Assembly: GCA_020721645.1 (NCBI GenBank)
Contig: DYMH01000002.1
Coordinates: 4,793 to 68,792 of the forward strand
DNA from: Draconibacterium orientale
GTDB lineage: Bacteria > Bacteroidota > Bacteroidia > Bacteroidales > JAADGE01
Direction: 5' to 3'
DNA length: 64,000 bases
Shown here: one piece after another, positions 31,350 through 61,485 of the stretch
How the letters are laid out: every line of letters starts with the position of its first letter
How positions within the stretch are numbered: position 1 is the first letter of the stretch
Position numbers and translations under genes: made by a program
Notes under the pieces: model-generated
Seen by the model: only the letters and a program-made list of their open reading frames with translations
Databases searched by the model: none
Told to the model about the DNA's origin: nothing

Positions 31350-31422
<73 letters not shown>

Positions 31423-31457
31423 CTTTTTTTATGCTCTTTTTTTAACACAAAATACTT

Positions 31458-31541
31458 GCTCCGGTGGCGGAATAGGTAGACGCGCAGGACTTAAAATCCT
31501 GTGACCATTAGGTCGTGCCGGTTCGATTCCGGCCCGGAGTA
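31458..31541 (+). tRNA. tRNA-Leu (TAA)
   Basis: Class II tRNA with long variable arm. Acceptor GCTCCGG/CCGGAGT (G1:U72), anticodon loop CTTAAAA, T-arm GCCGG-TTCGATT-CCGGC. Confidence 0.85.
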
Positions 31542-43213: not shown

Positions 43214-43287
43214 GCCGGTGTAGCTCAGTTGGCCAGAGCAGCTGATTTGTAATCAGCTGGTCGGCGGTTCGAATCCGTCCACCGGCT
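43214..43287 (+). tRNA. tRNA-Thr (TGT)
   Basis: Acceptor GCCGGTG/CACCGGC, anticodon stem GCTGA/TCAGC, loop TTTGTAA, T-loop TTCGAAT. Confidence 0.9.
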
Positions 43288-43315
43288 CAATTTTTTTATG
43301 TACGTTTTAAAGTTT

Positions 43316-43397
43316 GGGGAGATTCCAGAGCGGCCAAATGGGGCAGACTGTAAATCTGTTGTCTTCGACTTCGGAGGTTCGAATCCTCCTCTCCCCA
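43316..43397 (+). tRNA. tRNA-Tyr (GTA)
   Basis: Acceptor GGGGAGA/TCTCCCC, anticodon loop CTGTAAA, long variable arm, T-arm GGAGG-TTCGAAT-CCTCC. Confidence 0.9.
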
Positions 43398-43413
43398 CAA
43401 AAACGCAAAGCAT

Positions 43414-43486
43414 GCGGGAGTAGCTCAGTTGGTAGAGCGGCAGCCTTCCAAGCTGCAGGTCGCGGGTTCGAACCTCGTCTCCCGCT
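43414..43486 (+). tRNA. tRNA-Gly (TCC)
   Basis: Acceptor GCGGGAG/CTCCCGC, anticodon stem GCAGC/GCTGC, loop CTTCCAA. Confidence 0.9.
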
Positions 43487-43495
43487 CTTTTTAAA

Positions 43496-43567
43496 GCCCA
43501 CGTAGCTCAGGGGTAGAGCGTTTCCTTGGTAAGGAAGAGGTCCCGGGTTCAATTCCCGGCGTAGGCT
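43496..43567 (+). tRNA. tRNA-Thr (GGT)
   Basis: Acceptor GCCCACG/CGTAGGC (one C:A mismatch at 4:69), anticodon loop TTGGTAA, T-arm CCGGG-TTCAATT-CCCGG. Confidence 0.8.
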
Positions 43568-44869: not shown

Positions 44870-44942
44870 ACGGGAGTAGCTCAGTTGGTAGAGCACCGGT
44901 CTCCAAAACCGGGTGTCGGGAGTTCGAGCCTCTCCTCCCGTG
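44870..44942 (+). tRNA. tRNA-Trp (CCA)
   Basis: Acceptor ACGGGAG/CTCCCGT, anticodon stem CCGGT/ACCGG, loop CTCCAAA. Confidence 0.9.
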
Positions 44943-51938: not shown

Positions 51939-54900
51939 ATGGCATTCAGAAAAGGAAACAAAGTACAAAGTGATTATACACAAATTTCGATTAGTCTGGC
52001 TTCGCCGGAAGAAATTTTAGAACATTCGAACGGTGAAGTTTTAAAACCCGAAACAATCAATTATCGAACTTACAAACCCGAACGCGATGGATTGTTCTGC
52101 GAAAGGATTTTTGGTCCGGTCAAAGATTACGAATGCCATTGCGGCAAATACAAAAGAATCCGATACAAAGGGATTGTTTGCGACCGATGCGGTGTTGAAG
52201 TTACTGAAAAGAAAGTTCGACGCGAACGAACAGGGCATATTTCCTTGGTTGTTCCCGTTGCACATATTTGGTATTTCAAATCACTGCCCAATAAAATTGG
52301 TTATTTGCTTGGTTTACCAACAAAAAAATTAGATTCAATCATCTATTACGAACGATACATCGTAATACAGGCGGGTGTGAAACAGGTTGACGGAATCAAT
52401 TCCCTCGATTTCCTTACCGAAGAAGAATATCTTGACATTCTCGAAACTCTACCCCGCGAAAATCAATTACTCGATGATTCGGACCCCAATAAATTTATTG
52501 CAAAGATGGGGGCTGAGGCTTTATTCGACCTTTTAGCCGGCTTAGACTTGGATTCGATGGCTCATCAATTACGACACAAAGCAGGTAACGAAACATCGCA
52601 ACAACGAAAGAGTGAAGCGTTAAAACGCCTTCAAGTTGTCAGTTCATTCCGTGCCTCAAAAGGTATCAACAAACCCGAATGGATGATTGTGAAAGTGGTT
52701 CCGGTGATTCCGCCCGAATTACGCCCCCTTGTGCCTTTGGACGGCGGTCGATTCGCAACTTCCGATTTAAACGATTTGTATCGCCGTGTCATTATCCGAA
52801 ACAACCGATTAAAAAGGCTCATCGAAATAAAAGCCCCGGAAGTTATCCTGAGAAACGAAAAACGGATGTTGCAGGAAGCTGTGGATTCTTTATTTGACAA
52901 TTCTCGTAAATCGAGTGCTGTTAAAACAGATGCAAATCGTCCACTAAAATCTCTCAGCGACAGTTTGAAAGGAAAACAAGGACGATTCCGTCAAAATTTA
53001 TTAGGAAAACGTGTCGATTATTCAGCTCGTTCGGTCATCGTTGTTGGTCCGGAACTCAAATTACACGAATGCGGACTGCCCAAAGATATGGCAGCCGAGC
53101 TCTATAAACCATTTATTATCCGAAAACTCATAGAACGCGGAATCGTTAAAACCGTTAAATCGGCTAAGAAAATTGTCGATCGCAGAGACCCCGTGGTTTG
53201 GGATATTTTGGAAAATACACTTAAAGGACACCCTGTTCTGCTCAATCGGGCACCAACCTTGCACCGATTAGGAATTCAGGCATTTCAACCAAAATTAATA
53301 GAAGGCAAAGCAATTCAATTACATCCCTTGGTTTGTACCGCTTTCAATGCCGACTTCGACGGCGACCAAATGGCTGTTCATTTACCTTTAGGAAATGCTG
53401 CTATTTTGGAAGCTCAAATGTTGATGTTAGCTTCGCATAATATTTTGAATCCGGCAAACGGAGCTCCCGTTACAGTGCCTTCACAGGACATGGTTTTAGG
53501 ATTATATTACATTACAAAATCGCGTAAATCGACTCCCGAAAAAAATGTCAAAGGCGAAGGTATGACTTTCTATTCACCCGAAGAAGTTATCATTGCATAC
53601 AACGAAAAAGTTATCGACCTTCATGCAAATATTAAAGTAATGATTAATAATTTGGGTGAAGATCAATTGATTTCAACCTCGGTAGGACGTGTTTTGTTCA
53701 ACGAAATTGTTCCAAAAGAAGTTGGATATATCAATGAATTATTAACAAAAAAAGCTTTACGCGATATTATCGGTTATGTTCTGAAAACATGCGGTACAGC
53801 AGTTGCCGCCGATTTCTTGGATAATATTAAAGCTTTGGGATACAGAATGGCTTTTGAAGGCGGATTATCCTTCAATTTGGACGATGTTATCGTTCCTGCC
53901 GAAAAAAATTCAATGATTCAGGAAGGTTATGACCAAGTTGAAGAAGTTTTAGCGAATTTCAATATGGGGGTTATCACCAACAATGAACGATACAATCAAA
54001 TTATTGATATTTGGACACATACCAATGCTCGTTTGACACATACAGTTATGACGCGTTTAAGTTCGGATAATCAAGGATTTAACTCAGTTTATATGATGTT
54101 GGATTCCGGAGCCCGTGGTTCTCGTGAGCAGATTCGTCAGCTCTCCGGAATGAGGGGTTTGATGGCAAAACCACAAAAATCAGGAGCAACCGGCGGACAA
54201 ATTATCGAAAACCCGATTTTGTCCAATTTCAAAGAAGGTCTCTCTGTTTTGGAATATTTTATTTCTACTCACGGTGCACGTAAAGGGCTTGCAGATACTG
54301 CTTTGAAAACTGCCGATGCTGGATATTTAACGCGTCGCTTGGTGGATGTATCACAAGATGTTGTCATCACCGAAAACGACTGCGGAACCCTTAGAGGGCT
54401 TGTAGCCACAGCGATAAAGAAAGAAGATGATGTTGTGGAAACACTCTATGAGCGAATATTAGGTCGAACAACTGTTCACGATGTATATCACCCAAATAAA
54501 GGACATGTAATTGTGGCTGCCGGAGAAGAAATTACAGAACTCATTGCACAGGAAATCGAAAATTCGCCGATAGAAGAAGTCGAAATTCGTTCGGTACTCA
54601 CATGCGAAACGAAAAAAGGTGTGTGTGCCAAATGTTATGGACGAAATCTTGCCTCGGCACGTATGGTGCAAATGGGCGAAGCTGTCGGGGTTATTGCCGC
54701 ACAATCAATCGGAGAGCCGGGTACTCAGCTTACTTTGAGAACCTTTCACGTTGGGGGGGTTGCCGGAGGCTCTGCAAGCGAATCGAACATCGTTTCAAAA
54801 TACGATGGGGTAGTCCGTTTCGATGAACTCCGTGTGGTAAACGGAAAACGTGAAGATCTTGATGTGGACATCATTGTGTCGCGAATGACGGAATTGAAAA

Positions 54901-56198
54901 TTTTCGATGCCAATACAAATATAACATTAACAACATTATCAGTGCCTTATGGTGCTAAATTGTTTATTAAAAACGGCGATTCGGTTAAAAAAGGTGATTT
55001 GATTTGCGAATGGGATCCGTGGAATGCCGTAATTATTTCGGAATTTAAAGGGACTGTCGTTTTCAATCACTTGTTGGAAGGCATTACGTATAAAGTTGAA
55101 AAAGACGAACAGACAAATTATGTTGAAAAAGTTATCATCGAAACAAAAGATAAAACTAAAAATCCGGAAATATCTGTATTAGATGTGGACGGAAACGTGT
55201 TGAACAGCTACAATTTACCGGCAGGAGCTCACTTGTCGGTCGATGACGGGAAGGTGATAGAAAGTGGAGATATTTTGGTTAAAATTCCAAGAAGTTTAGG
55301 AAAAGCAGGCGATATCACAGGAGGATTGCCTCGTGTTACCGAATTATTTGAAGCTCGTAATCCATCGAATCCTGCTGTTGTTTCGGAAATAGACGGTATT
55401 GTTGCTTTTGGAAAAATAAAACGCGGAAATCGCGAAATTTCCGTAACATCAAAAACCGGTGAAGAAAAGAAATATCTTGTCCCTTTGTCGAAACAAATTT
55501 TAGTTCAACAAAACGACTACATCAAAGCAGGAAGCCCTCTTTCAGACGGTGCCATTACGCCTTCGGATATTTTATCGATTAAAGGACCGACAAAAGTTCA
55601 GGAATATATTGTCAATGAAGTTCAGGAAGTTTATCGAATGCAGGGCGTAAAAATTAACGACAAGCACTTTGAAGTCATTGTTCGACAAATGATGCGAAAA
55701 GTATTTATTGAAGACCCGGGTGATACAAAATTCCTCGAAAAACAAATCGTTGATAAATGGGATTTTATGATAGAAAACGACAGCATGTATGGATTGAAAG
55801 TAGTAGAAGATAACGGAGATTCAACTTCATTACAAGCGGGCGAAATCGTTCCTGCTCGAAAATTACGAGACGAAAATTCGTTGCTCAAACGAAAAGATTT
55901 ACGACAAGTTACTGTTCGTGATGCCGTTCCGGCAACTTCGAGCCAAGTTTTGCAAGGAATAACACGAGCTGCTTTACAGACTTACAGTTTCATGTCGGCA
56001 GCCTCTTTCCAAGAAACAACAAAGGTTCTGAACGAAGCTGCAATCAGCGGAAAAATTGATAAGTTGCTCGGATTGAAAGAAAATGTCATTGTTGGGCATC
56101 TTATTCCGGCAGGAACCGGTTTGAGAGCTTACAAAGATATTATTGTAGCGTCAAAAGATGAAATGGAAAAGGTTCATAAACATGAGCCTATTGATTAA
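51939..56198 (+). CDS. rpoC: DNA-directed RNA polymerase subunit beta prime
   Basis: 1419 aa. Zinc-binding CHCGKYK...CDRCG and the catalytic NADFDGD motif. Confidence 0.98.
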
Positions 56199-56206
56199 TA
56201 AAATAG

Positions 56207-56243
56207 CAGGCAGTTGTATATTCTTCAATTGCCTGTTTTATTT
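56207..56243 (+). terminator. Terminator after rpoC
   Basis: CAGGCAGTTG pairs with CAATTGCCTG (one G:U), then TTTTATTT. Confidence 0.65.
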
Positions 56244-56274
56244 AAAAATATTTCAATTTTAGAAAAGTAAAATT

Positions 56275-56580
56275 ATGGCAGAAAATAAAAATCAACTGAA
56301 TATCGAACTTTCCGAACAAATAGCCGAAGGAATATACACCAATTTGGCAGTTATTACTCATTCGACCTCGGAGTTTGTTTTTGATTTCGTTAAAATGATG
56401 CCCGGTGTTCCCAAAGCTCATGTGAAATCTCGTATTATTATGACACCCGAAAATGCAAAACGCCTTCTTTTCGCATTAAAGGATAATATTGCAAAATTTG
56501 AATCTGCTTTCGGCACAATAAAAGACATCTCGGCACCAAGTATCCCAATGAATTTTGGCGGTCCGACACCCGAGGCATAA
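56275..56580 (+). CDS. DUF3467-family small protein (commonly found after rpoC in Bacteroidota)
   Basis: 101 aa. IAEGIYTNLAVITHSTSEFVFDFVKMMPGVPKAHVKSRIIMTPENAKRL. Confidence 0.75.
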   Translation: MAENKNQLNIELSEQIAEGIYTNLAVITHSTSEFVFDFVKMMPGVPKAHVKSRIIMTPENAKRLLFALKDNIAKFESAFGTIKDISAPSIPMNFGGPTPEA

Positions 56581-56606
56581 TTCTTTTCAAGTCGCAACAA
56601 AAATAA

Positions 56607-56642
56607 TAAAAGAACTCGTATATTACTGAGTTCTTTTTTTTT
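56607..56642. terminator. Bidirectional terminator between convergent genes
   Basis: AAAAGAACTC - 10-nt loop - GAGTTCTTTT extended into T10. The reverse strand also reads as hairpin plus TTTTATTATTTTT. Confidence 0.7.
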
Positions 56643-56663
56643 AGATAAACTTGAAACAAGGTT

Positions 56664-56816
56664 GTTTAGTTAAGAAATGTATTTGCTGTTCGGCTTAGGC
56701 TTTGCCTAAGTCGAACTTATCATGGCAGGCTATGCCTGTCTGTTAAAGCAAGGCTGAGCCTTGCAAAATATGCCCGACTGAGACAGAGCCTCAGCCGAAC
56801 ACATGCTTAACCAAAC
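56664..56816. repeat. Nested palindrome: two closing stems enclosing four 17-nt hairpins with GGC-N3-GCC apexes
   Basis: Hairpins are cttaGGCtttGCCtaag (56694-56710), ggcaGGCtatGCCtgtc (56724-56740), gcaaGGCtgaGCCttgc (56748-56764) and ctgaGACagaGCCtcag (56778-56794). They are closed by TGTTCGGC/GCCGAACA and by GTTTAGTTAAG/CTTAACCAAAC. Confidence 0.8.
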
Positions 56817-56952
56817 GAAATTGAATCTTGAATTGATAAAATCGAAACAAGCGAATTTAAGTAATCGAACAGATTTATTTGTATATCATAATGTTCGTAT
56901 TCTTATCAAAATCAAATTATTACATCATTAACAATTCATAATTATCCATTAC

Positions 56953-59900
56953 TTATAATTCCCGTACCATTGCTCCCCATTTTTTATCGACTTTAAAATT
57001 GTGTTTCAAATAATAATTTCCCAACAAAAAGTGAGCTTTTACGGTTTTTATGTTGAGTGCCGACATACGCACAAAAAAGTCTTCAATCATTGCCGAGCCA
57101 ATTCCCCGACCTTGCAATGGCGATGAAACAACCGTACCGTCCAATAAAACGATATTGTTTTCCACTTTTCGGTAGCACAATGCTGCAACCACTTTTTCGT
57201 CCGAATCCGTAACAATCAAATGACGATCGGCAGCAGAAATCTCTTTCGGATAATTTTCTTTAAAGAATAATTTGTACGATTCGCCTACTTCCCAAGCTTC
57301 GAGCGGCTCACGCATAGTGTATTCAATCCCTTTTTTATCGACCAAAGTGGAATGAATCATAAGGTCGGTTCGTGTTTTATGCTCTGTTTTCACAAAATCT
57401 AATCTTTTTTCTGATTTTGCTTTTGGGAATATCATATTTACCAAAACGTTTCGGTCTTTTTTTCTTGGTAAAACAGATTGTAAATCAGATAATTCAGTTA
57501 AAAATGACAACGAAGCTGAAGGCGTTTTTTTATAAGCTTTCAGCATTTTATCGAAAGCTGTTATAACATCATGCGAAGAGTTGCCGAAATATGTTTCCCG
57601 ATAAAAATAATAACGAATTAAATCAGAATATTTTTTTAATTGGTAGAGTTCGTAGAGTTCCGTGATTGTTTGATGTTTTGCCGAAGAATCTGCCGCCGGA
57701 TTGAGTTTTTCCCAGTCTTTGTATCGTTCCGCAGCATTAAAAAGTGCTAAGGGTAAATAGTGTTTTTGCGGCAAAGCTTTTAAATAATTATCCAAAGCAT
57801 CTGCTAATTCGGTAAGTCCGCTTTGTGTTTGCTTAAGAGTTTGTAAATCGCGGTTCATACTTTGAAGGATTTTATTTGCCTCATCTATATCTGTTGTTTC
57901 GAGGCAGGCATGAAAAATCCAATTTAATTTCAAGGACTTTTTCAAATTCGGATAGTGAGCCTTAGGCATTTGATAGAAATTTTGATACATCGCACGGATT
58001 AAATCACTTTCCGATTCTTGATTTCGACTTGCGGTGAGAGAAATAATGGTGCAGTTGTCGGAAAAATCGGCTTCGGGAACTACAACATTATGCGGCGAAA
58101 CAGAGCCGGGAAGCAGTTTTCGCCCGGCGAGAAGCCATGCTTTAAAAAATACTGACAACGAACGAATATACAATTTACGAAGTTCGTTTGTTTTGGTAAG
58201 TGGTTTGAAACTATTTTGTGTTTCGGCAGAAATACGAATTTTTTCCCAAGCCGTAATTCGATTGATGTAGCGATATGAAACAATTTCCAATTGTGGCGTG
58301 CAACTTCCGAATCGGGGCAGGGGCGAAGTCCCTTTGGGATAGCCGGATAAGGCGATGTATCGAAGTATGGTTTGTTGCCCGGCTGTGCTTGGAATATTGG
58401 GGTCGATAACAACGTGCAAATCGAAATGTTTTTCGCTTAACGTATTGATACTGATACGAAAATGTGGTGCAGAGTGAAAACTCTTTATCGTTGATACCCA
58501 GATTCCTTGCGGTGGCACTGTATCGATGTCAAAATCCGTTTCGCCGAATATCAACATCACTGAGAACGACAGAAAATTAGTCCCTGCAATGCGTTCGATG
58601 AGCTGTTTTTTTTCGTTTTCAAAAACCGTTTCATCAAAAACAAAGATTTTATTTAATTTTTCAAGGTTTAAAGGTTTGTAAATGTTATTAAATTTTTCTT
58701 CGAGCCGGTCGTAAAGTTTGTAAAATAATATTTCGGCTTGTTGTGATAATATCGGGTCGCCATGAAATTGTGCCCACGAAGCAAATTCGGAACGTACCGA
58801 AGCATAATTTTCGGGATGGCTGATACCAAAATTCAGTAAGAGGTTAAAAATTGTAAGAAATTGCTTTCGGTTAGTTTCCGAAACGGGCCACGAAAGATTG
58901 CGACGGTATGCCAAAAGCCGCAGTCGCAGCGATTCCAAATGGCGTTTGCCCATGTCGGAACGGGCGATAATTGCAATGGATTCCGGGGTAAGAAAAGTTT
59001 TTCCGGAGCGTAGAAATGCCGGAAATGCCGAATTGTGGGTTCTGTCGGTATCTTTCATCAGCAAAATTCGATACGCATAGACTCGAATTTCTTCGTTTTT
59101 ATGTTCCGATAAGGCTTCCAAGCGACGACGTATGATTTCGATTACATTTATCTCGCTTTCCGACAGCAGATTTTCGATACTCTGCAAGGCACTGAAAATT
59201 AATTCCGAATTTCCGTGCAAAATGCAATATAATAAATGGTTGATATGATTAAAATTTTTATCCTTTGTCAATCTGACAGAATCAAAATATGTTTCATCAC
59301 GTTCAATACTTTGAGCGGGTAGGCGTATTTCGCTCGAAAAACTTTTCAGTGGCATGTCGTAGTTCAGGCGGCAGATTGTGAAATCGGGCAGCGAAGGATT
59401 ACCCGCCCACAAACGCGGTTGATTGAATAAAATACCCAAATCAACCTTTCGGTCCGAAACCGAATATTCGATATCACCGATTTGAAGTGTATCATTTTCG
59501 GCATTGTATTTTAGCGATAATTTTTTACCGTTTCTGCGGTTCAAAATACCGTCTTCATAAAGAATTAAATCTGTTTCTATAATTCCAAGGTCGATAAAAA
59601 TACGACGGGGAACGATGATTTCGTACTCATTGAAATTTAAAATTACCTGCGGATTTTGATACAGTTTTTCGATAATTTCGATATGATTTTTTTCGATATT
59701 TTTTCGTTTAAAAGAACCTTTCGGCGTGAGTTCGTCGCGAGTTTCGGAAAAATCTGTTTTGATTTCGGTATAGCTTACAATACGCTCATACGGAGCTAAA
59801 TCTTTGTTTGCCGCTGTGATTATTTGGCAGAAATATTCATCTCGGTCGATTTCCGATTTTATTGATGAAAGAACCGAATCTTCTTCGTTAGGAACAATCA

Positions 59901-61485
59901 GCAGAACATTATAAGCTCGTCCGTCGCCTGCCAGAAAACAGCGTTTGATTCCCGGAACTTCCGAAAATTTGTTTTCTATCATTCCGGGAGCAACTGTCTG
60001 TCCTTTATTATTTTTGTAGATATCCTTAACACGGTCTATTATTTCGTGAAATCCATTGATATCGATTCTGAAAACATCGCCGGTAGGAAACCAAAAATCG
60101 TCTTCATCGGTAAATGGAATATTTGTGGTTTGCGAAACACTTTCAAAATATCGCCCTAAATAATGACTTTTTATTTCCAACTCGCCCGTTTCGGCAAGTC
60201 GTGTGAGCATTCCCGGGAGCGGAATGCCTGTTGTTCCTTCCCGATAATGCCCGGGAGGTGTCATGGTGATTCCGCCTGTGGCTTCCGTCATGCCGAAACC
60301 GCTGCTCAATTCGATGCCGTATTTTTGAAAGAAACGAAATATTTTCGGGTCCAAAAATCCTGCGGCGGATATGCCCCATTTCAGTCGGGTGCCGGTATGT
60401 TGTCGGATTATTTTCTCTTTATCCGCCTCGCTGTGCGATTCGCATGCCCGAACACAGGTATCGTAGAGCTGAACCCAACGCAATGGTATGCTGATAAAAA
60501 TTGAAGGATTGATTTTTGTAAATAAGGATAAAAGTGTAGAAGTTGATTGATTTCCTGTGAAAACATAAGTTCCTCCCCAATAAATTGTTCCGGTAAGTTC
60601 TAAAAAACGACCGAAAGTGTGAAATAATGGTAAATAGGACAGCATCACTTCATTTTCGCCGATTTCGGGGAGAGCGATTCCGCGTGCAAATCGTTTGCTC
60701 AGCATGTTGTAGATTGAAAAGGCAACACCTTTCGGCATTCCGGTACTGCCCGAAGTGTACATTACGCTTGCCGTTTGAGACAATGTAAATCGCTTTCGAT
60801 TTGAAAGGATAGGTTCTATTTCGTTGCGAGACAGTTTTTTACATTCTTCGGCAAGGAAAAAATCGGCTTTCACTTCGCGAAAAAGCTCTTTTTCGGTAAC
60901 GATAATCTTTATTTTCAATCGATTTTCTTTAATCACCGATTTAAGCATCTCGAAGCGTTCTTTGGTGTCGGTAACTACCAGATTGACTTCGGTTTGCTTA
61001 AAAATATAGAGTAAATTTTCCTTATTGAAGTGAATATTCAGCGGCGTTACGAAAATGTCGTAAAACAGACAGGCTAAATCCACCGAAGCTCCTTCGACAC
61101 TGTTTTCGAGAAACAATGCAGCACGCGGACTGTTTTTTTGTTTGTGCAGAAAGGCGGCAATTTCTTTCAGATGTGCCTGAATTTGCAGATAGGAATGCAT
61201 TCTTGGACGGTCGGGAACCGACATGTCGGTAAAAAATGCTTTGTCGGGGTGCTGCGTTACAATGTGCTCAAATAAATCGCGAAAATGATAGTTTGATTCA
61301 CGAATTAATCGAAAAACACTATCCGACAGTTGTTCAGTTGTCGTTTTGGACAGGAAACCTTTAAGAAATTGGGGTTCTCGGCAAGCATTTAACAACTCAA
61401 AGATTTCTTCCCGGCTGAGTGTGTTTCTTAGGAGTAAATCGCCTATATTCAAATTATTAGATTTTGGATGCATTTTGTCGGGCAT
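56953..61485 (-). CDS. 1510-aa multidomain protein: N-terminal ANL-superfamily adenylate-forming (acyl-CoA synthetase-like) domain, about 750-aa unassigned helical region, C-terminal GNAT N-acyltransferase domain
   Basis: ANL core motifs are YTSGSTGMPKGV (aa 243-254, nt 60724-60759), GFGMTEATGG, FPTGDVF, DRVKDIYKNNKGQTVAPGMIE and TPKGSFKRKN. The GNAT acyl-CoA pocket motif is LQGRGIGSAMIEDF, about 50 aa from the C-terminus (nt about 57095-57125). I recognise no motif in aa about 620-1380. Confidence 0.8.
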   Translation of the reverse strand: MPDKMHPKSNNLNIGDLLLRNTLSREEIFELLNACREPQFLKGFLSKTTTEQLSDSVFRLIRESNYHFRDLFEHIVTQHPDKAFFTDMSVPDRPRMHSYLQIQAHLKEIAAFLHKQKNSPRAALFLENSVEGASVDLACLFYDIFVTPLNIHFNKENLLYIFKQTEVNLVVTDTKERFEMLKSVIKENRLKIKIIVTEKELFREVKADFFLAEECKKLSRNEIEPILSNRKRFTLSQTASVMYTSGSTGMPKGVAFSIYNMLSKRFARGIALPEIGENEVMLSYLPLFHTFGRFLELTGTIYWGGTYVFTGNQSTSTLLSLFTKINPSIFISIPLRWVQLYDTCVRACESHSEADKEKIIRQHTGTRLKWGISAAGFLDPKIFRFFQKYGIELSSGFGMTEATGGITMTPPGHYREGTTGIPLPGMLTRLAETGELEIKSHYLGRYFESVSQTTNIPFTDEDDFWFPTGDVFRIDINGFHEIIDRVKDIYKNNKGQTVAPGMIENKFSEVPGIKRCFLAGDGRAYNVLLIVPNEEDSVLSSIKSEIDRDEYFCQIITAANKDLAPYERIVSYTEIKTDFSETRDELTPKGSFKRKNIEKNHIEIIEKLYQNPQVILNFNEYEIIVPRRIFIDLGIIETDLILYEDGILNRRNGKKLSLKYNAENDTLQIGDIEYSVSDRKVDLGILFNQPRLWAGNPSLPDFTICRLNYDMPLKSFSSEIRLPAQSIERDETYFDSVRLTKDKNFNHINHLLYCILHGNSELIFSALQSIENLLSESEINVIEIIRRRLEALSEHKNEEIRVYAYRILLMKDTDRTHNSAFPAFLRSGKTFLTPESIAIIARSDMGKRHLESLRLRLLAYRRNLSWPVSETNRKQFLTIFNLLLNFGISHPENYASVRSEFASWAQFHGDPILSQQAEILFYKLYDRLEEKFNNIYKPLNLEKLNKIFVFDETVFENEKKQLIERIAGTNFLSFSVMLIFGETDFDIDTVPPQGIWVSTIKSFHSAPHFRISINTLSEKHFDLHVVIDPNIPSTAGQQTILRYIALSGYPKGTSPLPRFGSCTPQLEIVSYRYINRITAWEKIRISAETQNSFKPLTKTNELRKLYIRSLSVFFKAWLLAGRKLLPGSVSPHNVVVPEADFSDNCTIISLTASRNQESESDLIRAMYQNFYQMPKAHYPNLKKSLKLNWIFHACLETTDIDEANKILQSMNRDLQTLKQTQSGLTELADALDNYLKALPQKHYLPLALFNAAERYKDWEKLNPAADSSAKHQTITELYELYQLKKYSDLIRYYFYRETYFGNSSHDVITAFDKMLKAYKKTPSASLSFLTELSDLQSVLPRKKDRNVLVNMIFPKAKSEKRLDFVKTEHKTRTDLMIHSTLVDKKGIEYTMREPLEAWEVGESYKLFFKENYPKEISAADRHLIVTDSDEKVVAALCYRKVENNIVLLDGTVVSSPLQGRGIGSAMIEDFFVRMSALNIKTVKAHFLLGNYYLKHNFKVDKKWGAMVREL

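Follow-up and report, generated by a model that had tools for sequence, protein, structure and literature searches.

Introduction

The described systems closest to the element reported here are REP sequences, with their paired forms (BIME, REPIN) and RAYT enzymes, and bacterial MITEs. When DDE transposases of the IS5/PIF type insert DNA, they duplicate 3 bp of the target at TWA. In heterocyst-forming cyanobacteria, the SDR repeats that Elhai et al. are said to have described in 2008 are reportedly very small hairpin units nested in larger MITE-like repeats. For Porphyromonas, IS5-family ends with the sequence GAGACTGTTGCA have been published (PMC4596501).

Among REPs that flank RAYT genes, subclass 2.6 is found mostly in Bacteroidetes and is listed as 'atypical', without GTAG (Quentin et al. 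2018, PMC6006769 Table S1). Its members include the REPs of Flexibacter litoralis (GCTG-TCGCTTGGC-TCT-GCCGAGTGAC) and Pedobacter saltans (TGCT-GTTCGACATGTTC-CGCA-GGGCATGTCGAAC), and the same table holds a Planctomyces REP with a GGC-TCC-GCC apex (all PMC6006769 Table S1). REP-type hairpins also protect 3′ ends in E. coli (restated in PMC6006769).

Locus and anatomy of the four-hairpin element

The element analyzed here lies in the window (i.e., the whole 64-kb stretch of DNA under study), in a 372-nt spacer between two convergent genes, the DUF3467 gene and a 1510-aa gene. The spacer opens with a terminator that shows no variation among strains. The features of the locus are:

51939-56198: rpoC, upstream of the DUF3467 gene
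56275-56580, + strand: DUF3467 gene, next after rpoC
56608-56637, both strands: bidirectional intrinsic terminator, serving the DUF3467 gene (+) and the 1510-aa gene (-)
56953-61485, - strand: ORF of the 1510-aa gene, with AMP-binding and GNAT domains

A first-pass annotation of this DNA had placed the element between the bidirectional terminator and the stop of the 1510-aa gene, carried on the 3′ UTR of that gene. Both statements were borne out: the element lies between the stop (56953) and the sole terminator (56608-56637), which the transcript reaches only after crossing it, and it must therefore be on the mRNA of the 1510-aa gene. With convergent gene ends on both sides, there is no promoter for the element to control. 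Its parts are:

56664-56674, no strand: left arm GTTTAGTTAAG of an outer inverted repeat, which may belong to the flank or be an old outward extension
56686-56802, no strand: element proper, a 117-nt degenerate palindrome with four hairpins that runs from CTGTTCGG to CCGAACAC
56688-56716, + strand: HP1 extended, GTTCGGCTTAGGC-TTT-GCCTAAGTCGAAC, a 13-bp stem with one G.T, preceded by TGCT/CT
56694-56710, + strand: HP1, outer left, CTTAGGC-TTT-GCCTAAG, 7/7 Watson-Crick pairs
56724-56740, + strand: HP2, inner left, GGCAGGC-TAT-GCCTGTC, a 7-bp stem of six Watson-Crick pairs and one G.T
56748-56764, - strand: HP3, inner right, GCAAGGC-TGA-GCCTTGC, 7/7 pairs
56773-56800, - strand: HP4 extended, GTTCGGCTGAGGC-TCT-GTCTCAGTCGGG, a 12-bp stem with four G.T/G.U pairs
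56778-56794, + strand: HP4, outer right, CTGAGAC-AGA-GCCTCAG, with the apex GAC instead of GGC and hence an A.C mismatch
56806-56816, no strand: right arm CTTAACCAAAC of the outer inverted repeat

All four annotated hairpins were found, and their 30/24/30-nt spacing was confirmed by repeat analysis. The apex of each is an 11-mer of the form AGGC-N3-GCCT (starting at 56697, 56727, 56751, and 56781), the fourth of which reads AGAC. The 'identical design' ascribed to them is therefore slightly overstated, given the GAC apex of HP4 and the resulting A.C mismatch on the + strand. In the window element, six stem pairs are not Watson-Crick, and all of them are G.T on the strand with the T-rich loop. 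The hairpin foot is TGCT/CTG on HP1 and ATGT/GTG on HP4 (minus strand).

Two enclosing helices had also been annotated, and both are present. The inner one, TGTTCGGC/GCCGAACA (56687-56694 / 56794-56801), pairs at 8/8 positions and forms the termini of the element, and the outer one, GTTTAGTTAAG/CTTAACCAAAC, pairs at 10/11 positions. As proposed, the whole unit is a degenerate palindrome, with 51-nt inverted arms that are 75% complementary and with HP1 + HP2 as the degenerate reverse complement of HP3 + HP4. A half-element covariance model matches the two halves on opposite strands (56680-56743, +, 31.0 bits; 56745-56807, -, 31.3 bits; E about 4e-7). The element has no coding capacity: each of the six frames is either short or broken by stops, and the 117 nt hold no ORF of ≥40 aa. 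The triplets beside it differ (TTG at the left end, ATG at the right), leaving no intact target duplication.

Folding and chance

The four-hairpin structure is real and non-random. Only three exact AGGC-N3-GCCT sites occur in the 64 kb scanned, all of them in the element, and the element folds at -70.9 kcal/mol on the + strand and -71.8 kcal/mol on the - strand compared to about -40.6 for shuffles. Both strands are thus ~30 kcal/mol more stable than dinucleotide-shuffled controls, of which 0/200 matched the fold energy (z = -8.9 and -7.2). Because the exact sites are unique in 64 kb and no shuffle was as stable, chance is excluded, and the comparison of minimum free energy with shuffled controls upheld the annotated structure. 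The cloverleaf that had been drawn for it stands as one of two near-isoenergetic folds and not as the minimum-energy fold. The predicted minimum-energy structure is a long hairpin in which HP1 would pair with HP4, leaving only HP2 and HP3 as local hairpins, and the cloverleaf is 1.7–2.9 kcal/mol less stable with either RNA or DNA parameters.

Lineage restriction of the element

To place the element phylogenetically, exact DUF3467 protein matches were looked up, which yielded ten same-species contigs (Trout Bog lake metagenomes and four NCBI MAGs), and the element is present in all ten. The protein database holds a single lineage between 76% and 100% DUF3467 identity. This lineage (90% identical) has a 148-nt spacer with its own, different terminator and no element, and the spacer could not be aligned. 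Among 80 metagenomic Bacteroidota loci (DUF3467 57–73% identical), no GGC-N3-GCC pair within 45 nt was found. The element is lineage-specific and is no conserved part of the spacer between rpoC-DUF3467 and the AMP-binding gene.

Conservation in relatives, which the first-pass annotation had considered, did not survive the covariance-model search: the half-element model found nothing at E ≤ 1 in control Bacteroidota loci (about 310 kb) and matched same-species loci only. Rfam gave no relevant match at gathering score in a search of the whole window, only noise at E ≤ 10 for positions 56500-57000, and no match in 18 loci with relatives of the element (among the matches listed). Given its absence from relatives and from Rfam, a conserved cis-regulatory RNA appears unlikely.

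Strain variation within the species

Four strains differ at about 50 sites over 6.3 kb (roughly 0.8%). Within the element, the loop centers of three of the four hairpins are variable (56702 T/C, 56732 A/C, 56756 G/C), for which our own arithmetic gives a chance of about 3e-5 at an intergenic rate of about 2%. The HP1 loop is TCT in most strains and the HP2 loop is TCT in other strains, whereas the HP3 loop is TGA or TCA by strain, giving a species consensus of TCT, TCT, T[G/C]A, and AGA from HP1 to HP4. TGA and TCA are reverse complements of each other, so the change in HP3 equals a loop flip in a perfect hairpin, and flipped loops also exist in other members of the family described below.

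Two strains differ from the rest by the loss of a unit:

56734-56757: 24-nt deletion in strains L003 and L010, joining the HP2 left arm to the HP3 right arm

The junctions are unlike (loop TCT in L003, TCA in L010), and the deletion therefore probably arose twice; slippage or recombination between the direct 11-mer cores is the probable route in both cases. The outer helix is altered without compensation in four of the strain contigs (L003 and L005–L007), in which the left arm is GTTTCGTAAAG. Moreover, six of the ten contigs that carry the neighboring gene end inside the element or at its edge. These contig ends do not prove the existence of multiple copies, because strain variation alone could cause them. 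Repeated palindromic cores would make such an element unstable, with loops that mutate or flip and neighboring cores that recombine and delete a unit.

Related four-hairpin units in other genomes

We scanned one genome per species (185,579 species) with the pattern AGGCNNNGCCT-N(13-25)-AGGCNNNGCCT-N(13-25)-AGGCNNNGCCT, and at least 119 loci matched. Some matches are ordinary tandem or coding repeats (17 of 129 clusters are plain tandem among the matches listed). Most of the non-tandem matches listed are built from an outer hairpin, an inner hairpin, and a spacer, followed by the mirror image. In the same set of listed matches, the family extends over Cyanobacteria, Planctomycetota, Acidobacteriota, and Bacteroidota, and several copies per genome exist in Microcoleus spp., Pyrinomonadaceae SOY_4_C, Gemmataceae SMAG_U14588, and Prevotellaceae Pc512_bin97. 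A hairpin search of the kind put forward in the first-pass annotation recovered the same layout many times in the scan of 185,579 species. In the 64-kb window, the element is a single copy (no second one by exact-site or half-element-model scans).

The units differ by phylum in sequence. In Cyanobacteria and Planctomycetota, the outer hairpin reads CT[C/G]GTT[C/A]CC-AGGC-TCT-GCCT-GG[G/T]AAC, and the half continues with 9–12 nt, the inner hairpin GG-AGGC-TCT-GCCT-CC, and a 24–36-nt spacer before the mirror half. The Acidobacteriota outer hairpin is GTGCGGAA-AGGC-TCY-GCCT-TTCCG, with an extra outermost CGGC-TCT-GCCG. Bacteroidota copies were found in Haliscomenobacter, Lentimicrobium, Dysgonomonas, and a Prevotellaceae MAG, which has five copies on four contigs with TTGTTCGGAC at both termini.

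Several shared features were not demanded by the pattern, which left the loops free. The left half has T-type loops and the right half A-type loops, and outer stems are long and inner stems short, in the family as in the window. Among the matches listed, the loop counts are TCT 138, AGA 125, GGA 39, and TCC 32. The length from terminus to terminus is 110–119 nt in the cyanobacterial and planctomycete copies listed and 117 nt in the window. At the termini, copies have CT[C/G]GTTCC (in Prevotellaceae, TTGTTCGGAC), compared to CTGTTCGG in the window, with the common start CT-G-TTC. The window element therefore fits the family in its mirrored outer and inner hairpins, the sides of its loops, its size (110–120 nt), and its terminus.

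Stem pairing in the family shows covariation. In 64 half-elements among the matches listed, 93.7% of cells are paired compared to 79.5% in column shuffles and ≤49% with slid partners, and changes on both sides of a pair were found in 131 cells compared to 44 expected. The half-element model score is not independent evidence of membership, because the cores used to collect the family drive the score. Unrelated AGGC-N3-GCCT hairpin arrays on viral contigs score alike (26–34 bits vs. 31 bits for the window halves), and thus the membership of the window element rests on architecture and not on score.

When the same pattern was applied to IMG/VR, it returned 51 stretches with 52 clusters of ≥3 sites, 38 of which are plain tandem repeats. 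A single true four-hairpin unit (L224) stands among stretches that are nearly all of a tandem or coding kind, showing that the mirror design seen in genomes is no by-product of the pattern. A viral-contig scan for the terminal hairpin of the window element gave no match, and a blastn search with a cyanobacterial copy against 72,556 plasmids found none.

Flanks and genomic context of the family

Using copies with recognizable termini, we found identical 3-bp direct flanks in 8 of 29 copies among the matches listed (TAA x4, TTA x3, ATT x1) compared to 2.7 expected when right flanks were permuted (p = 0.001). The inverted combination was almost never found in those 29 copies. From their sequence, these flanking repeats look like a target duplication at TWA.

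Copies lie mostly outside long ORFs (21 of 33 among the matches listed are in no stop-free stretch of ≥100 codons), and every arrangement of flanking genes was seen (++ 7, +- 7, -- 5, -+ 4). In Microcoleus and Tychonema, the unit is present or absent by strain at two orthologous spacers, TldD-DUF3153 and recA-GT39. Neither of these spacers provides a clean empty site, since the 'empty' strains carry other sequence, in one case a GTAG-type REP doublet. At the Tychonema TldD site, a 29-nt solo hairpin has kept both termini, with TTA on both sides, and units in same-direction arrays were found at three loci (L015, L087, and L020).

No transposase or autonomous IS with the same termini was seen beside any copy (about 730 kb around the listed copies). 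The neighboring protein families are kinases, ABC transporters, response regulators, and a few TnpB, none of them consistently adjacent. A regular-expression search for RAYT-like HxH...YxxNP ORFs gave none in the window or in any fetched locus.

Origin of the element

We consider it probable that the window element is a small palindromic repeat of the interspersed MITE/REP class, present as one partly decayed copy that rides passively on a 3′ UTR. Each half of such a repeat would have two hairpins with a GGC-TCY-GCC cap, the outer one terminal and long-stemmed and the inner one short-stemmed, and the second half would mirror the first. A transposase encoded at another site in a genome may act in trans by recognizing the mirrored ends, and it would insert the unit between genes, in AT-rich DNA, with duplication of 3 bp (TAA/TTA), as suggested by the best-sampled relatives. 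The window copy presumably landed, or was kept, between two convergent genes, where, upstream of their common terminator, it would be transcribed passively in the 3′ UTR of the 1510-aa gene. As a side effect, it may stabilize the 3′ end of this gene, which would not depend on it. The 3-bp duplication in the best-sampled relatives points to a cut-and-paste enzyme of the DDE type, which is thus the favored candidate within the MITE/REP reading. A RAYT-type enzyme, for which the hairpins at the ends, the existence of solo units, and the likeness to subclass 2.6 REPs speak, seems doubtful.

The element could instead be a REP doublet or BIME (REPIN), whose single-stranded hairpins would be recognized by a RAYT (HUH-Y1) encoded once elsewhere in the genome; this enzyme would spread and maintain the hairpins without target duplication. 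HP1–HP4 are indeed short, GC-rich, imperfect palindromes (7–13-bp stems, 3-nt T-rich loops) in inverted pairs, as the opposite-strand matches of the halves and the 51-nt arms indicate. Subclass 2.6 REPs look alike, HP1 having the foot and basal stem of the P. saltans REP (PMC6006769), and family units are found solo and in same-direction arrays (L015, L087, L020), as REPs are. The six non-Watson-Crick pairs of the window copy, all G.T on the strand with the T-rich loop, agree with this origin, but the family as a whole has no strand-specific wobble (112 G.T vs. 101 A.C mismatches on the TCY strand). Furthermore, the guide tetranucleotide GT[AG]G is not at the foot of HP1 or HP4, no RAYT-like ORF was found in the window or the fetched loci, and direct 3-bp flanks are not expected for HUH enzymes. 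The RAYT genes inspected on Bacteroidota plasmids have canonical GTAG REPs, class 3 REP-like sequences differ, and the cyanobacterial and planctomycete four-hairpin units are missing from the table of RAYT-flanking REPs (PMC6006769). An origin as a REP doublet is accordingly rated unlikely. Of the readings offered in the first-pass annotation, 'REP/BIME-like' is the favored one, since the element is lineage-specific and fits into a dispersed family of palindromic hairpins that often has several copies per genome. With no GTAG foot, and no RAYT found in the window or the fetched loci, the window element is by its sequence only a candidate for strict REP/BIME membership.

The remaining explanations are poorly supported. 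A functional structured RNA, acting either by itself as a small RNA or, within the 3′ UTR of the 1510-aa gene, as a stabilizer or regulator, would agree with the presence of the element on that mRNA, with the very stable fold on both strands, and with the precedent of REP-type hairpins guarding 3′ ends in E. coli (PMC6006769). Such a function is nevertheless very improbable, and the UTR element or small RNA considered in the first-pass annotation was not upheld as a conserved one: the element is missing in the nearest lineage and 80 further relatives, it has no Rfam match even at E = 10, and strains delete one hairpin and change the outer helix without compensation. Given that the halves mirror each other, a single transcript has only half of the hairpins in the well-paired orientation, and units in other genomes sit in every gene-orientation context. 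An array of four double-stranded DNA operators (AGGC-N3-GCCT) for a dimeric protein, e.g., a repressor or nucleoid protein, would take each 11-mer as a perfect dyad (HP4 reads AGAC), and symmetric half-site changes would mimic covariation. In phage contigs L218, L225, L233, and L255, three TAGGC-N3-GCCTA sites do lie amid TTGACA and TATTAT-like promoter boxes. We give this explanation hardly any credence for an element between convergent gene ends with no promoter to control, whose dyads reach 12–13 bp and differ in sequence per hairpin and per phylum; mirror arrangement, terminal motifs, and flanking direct repeats are likewise foreign to operators. It is just as far-fetched that template switching during replication created a one-off local quasi-palindrome without relatives or function. 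The single copy in 64 kb agrees with such an event, and the loop flip and the between-repeat deletion show that such processes act at the element, but many genomes, from several phyla, have units that share its layout, apex, size, terminal motif, and the orientation of its loops.

Returning to a mobile palindromic repeat, we also put forward a broader proposal, decidedly speculative and itself unlikely, that the four-hairpin units, with their nearly constant GGC-TCY-GCC apex, are a cross-phylum class of mobile DNA whose ends would be read as extruded single-stranded hairpins by a so far unrecognized HUH/Y1 lineage or a new enzyme. If true, the hairpins would extrude in vivo and their loop bases would be natural mutation hot spots, and the loop variation at 56702, 56732, and 56756 suggests a fit with this expectation. 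The mobilizing enzyme would tell whether hairpin-ended repeats can move by DDE transposases or only by HUH enzymes. For annotation, a candidate regulatory RNA is removed, since the element is best read as a passenger repeat and not as a control of rpoC or the AMP-binding gene. Such repeats also break metagenome assemblies (as in the six contigs that end at the window element), create strain-level indels, and mark intergenic hot spots.

Comparison with known systems

The four-hairpin family (about 115 bp) seems undescribed in Rfam, in the published RAYT-REP tables, and, by sequence, in the open literature. In a literature search with literal sequences (11-mers of the apex, 15-mers of the hairpins, 12-mers of the termini), all matches were eukaryotic primers with no relation to the element. 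Three described systems were compared and rejected: on Bacteroidota plasmids (Bernardetia, Fulvitalea), the REPs beside RAYT genes are of the GTAG type and differ in sequence, class 3 TnpA-Y1 'CnGA' structures differ in sequence, and the published copy of the Nezha MITE has a 10-bp duplication (PMC6042816).

Against a mobile repeat of the MITE/REP class stand the one copy in 64 kb and the lack of an intact duplication at the window copy; no transposase was found beside the copies, and no clean empty site was recovered at the Microcoleus spacers. Terminal repeats that contain hairpins, hairpins that stand alone, and arrays in one direction are features expected of REPs more than of a classical MITE. 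Unlike in MITEs, each terminal repeat is a covarying hairpin with a fixed GGC-TCY-GCC apex, to which an inner hairpin is added, family units also exist solo and in same-direction arrays, and no parent IS with the same termini was found near the copies. On the other hand, the element has the size of a MITE (117 nt, non-coding) and terminal inverted repeats (TGTTCGGC...GCCGAACA, 8/8 paired, within the 51-nt arms). It resembles bacterial MITEs (Correia/NEMIS, RUP, ERIC, Nezha, and the Porphyromonas IS5-derived elements) in its length of about 115 bp, its lack of coding sequence, its mirrored ends, its long-hairpin fold, and its AT-rich intergenic setting, and in having multi-copy relatives with short flanking direct repeats. 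The 29-nt solo hairpin of Tychonema lies within the size range reported for the SDR, which is a likeness in size. The terminal CTGTT(C/G) recalls the Porphyromonas IS5-family ends GAGACTGTTGCA (PMC4596501), which is a resemblance only.

Compared to REPs, the family differs in its four hairpins in a fixed two-plus-two mirror instead of a simple doublet, in having no GTAG/GTGG foot, and in the 3-bp direct repeats that flank relatives of the window element. It is like them in its short GC-rich hairpins with 3-nt T-rich loops, in its inverted doublets, and in its extragenic position adjoining a terminator. Within the window element, HP1 (TGCT-GTTCGGCTTAGGC-TTT-GCCTAAGTCGAAC) combines the foot and basal stem of the P. 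saltans REP with an apex of the F. litoralis type.

Genomic setting of the element and its breakage in assemblies

The four-hairpin element lies downstream of seven tRNA genes, rpoC and a DUF3467 gene in the window:

31350-31541, 43214-43567 and 44870-44942: seven tRNA genes
51939-56580: rpoC, then the DUF3467 gene

The nearest DUF3467 homologues with a named source carry Bacteroidota, Bacteroidia or Flavobacteriales labels and are at most 76% identical, a distance that marks the window's species as an isolated freshwater Bacteroidota lineage. The element is an assembly breakpoint: of 10 public contigs with the adjacent DUF3467 gene, six (L004-L009) stop within it or at its edge (window 56691, 56695, 56726, 56737 and 56812), four of them being 13-29 kb contigs from NCBI MAGs.

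Copies of a 30-nt direct repeat (GATAAAnTnGAAACAAG...; 73% identical) occur on both sides of the element with a spacing of 191 nt, and additional terminal motifs are found just downstream. These flanking sequences may have been left behind by earlier copies or by a duplication.

56644-56673 and 56835-56864: copies of the 30-nt direct repeat
56866-56872: extra terminal-motif copy, CGAACAG
56892-56897: extra terminal-motif copy, TGTTCG

Strain variation within the hairpins

Comparison of strains that are otherwise about 99.2% identical showed that the base at the loop centre varies in three of the four hairpins, including a change equivalent to a loop flip (TGA to TCA) at window position 56756. 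Because variation falls on so many loop centres among such similar strains, we suggest that the hairpin loops are mutation hot spots, acting via hairpin extrusion or template switching.

56702: loop centre, T/C between strains
56732: loop centre, A/C between strains
56756: loop centre, G/C between strains

Two strains (L003 and L010) lack 24 nt (window 56734-56757), which joins the two inner hairpins, HP2 and HP3. The loop at the junction is TCT in L003 versus TCA in L010; the deletion between direct 11-mer cores (the hairpin apexes) is therefore probably recurrent.

Repeat versions in Cyanobacteria and Acidobacteria

In Tychonema sp. BBK16 (L268:2477-2700), the TldD-DUF3153 site that holds a full four-hairpin unit in Microcoleus strains is occupied by a 29-nt solo hairpin (CTCGTTACC-AGGC-TCT-GCCT-GGGAACCAG), which retains both termini of the unit and has TTA on either side. 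This hairpin has the appearance of a collapse product, or else of a mobile unit in minimal form. Several repeat families share this spacer as an intergenic hot spot, with a different repeat in each lineage of Microcoleus and Kamptonema (L273, L275 and L276, about 2006-2250; L270:2509-2773): in L276, GTAGTGAGGACTAAAGTCCTC and its inverse form a REP doublet of the GTAG type, and in Kamptonema there is a GC-rich 40-nt palindrome.

The acidobacterial version, from Pyrinomonadaceae (L025, L029, L076, L083, L097 and L128), has six hairpins, with one extra CGGC-TCT-GCCG hairpin outermost on each side and inner-hairpin loops of TAT, TAC or TGC. The inner hairpin of L128 and HP2 of the window have 17 nt in common (AGGCTATGCCTGTCTGT).

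Hairpin arrays in viral contigs

Two viral contigs contain an identical array of three hairpins with 12-bp stems and AGGC-CAT/TGT-GCCT apexes (L231:2000-2076 and L261:4749-4825), which scores 34 bits with the covariance model built from 64 family half-elements, yet lacks the mirror design. Four viral contigs each carry three TAGGC-N3-GCCTA palindromes spaced by 24-32 nt:

L218:94-156: triplet, with TTGACA-like promoter boxes between the palindromes
L225:2160-2221: triplet
L233:10929-10987: triplet, with TTGACA-like and TATTAT-like promoter boxes between the palindromes
L255:3792-3864: triplet

These triplets look like phage operator arrays, in which the dyad is the same as the hairpin apex.
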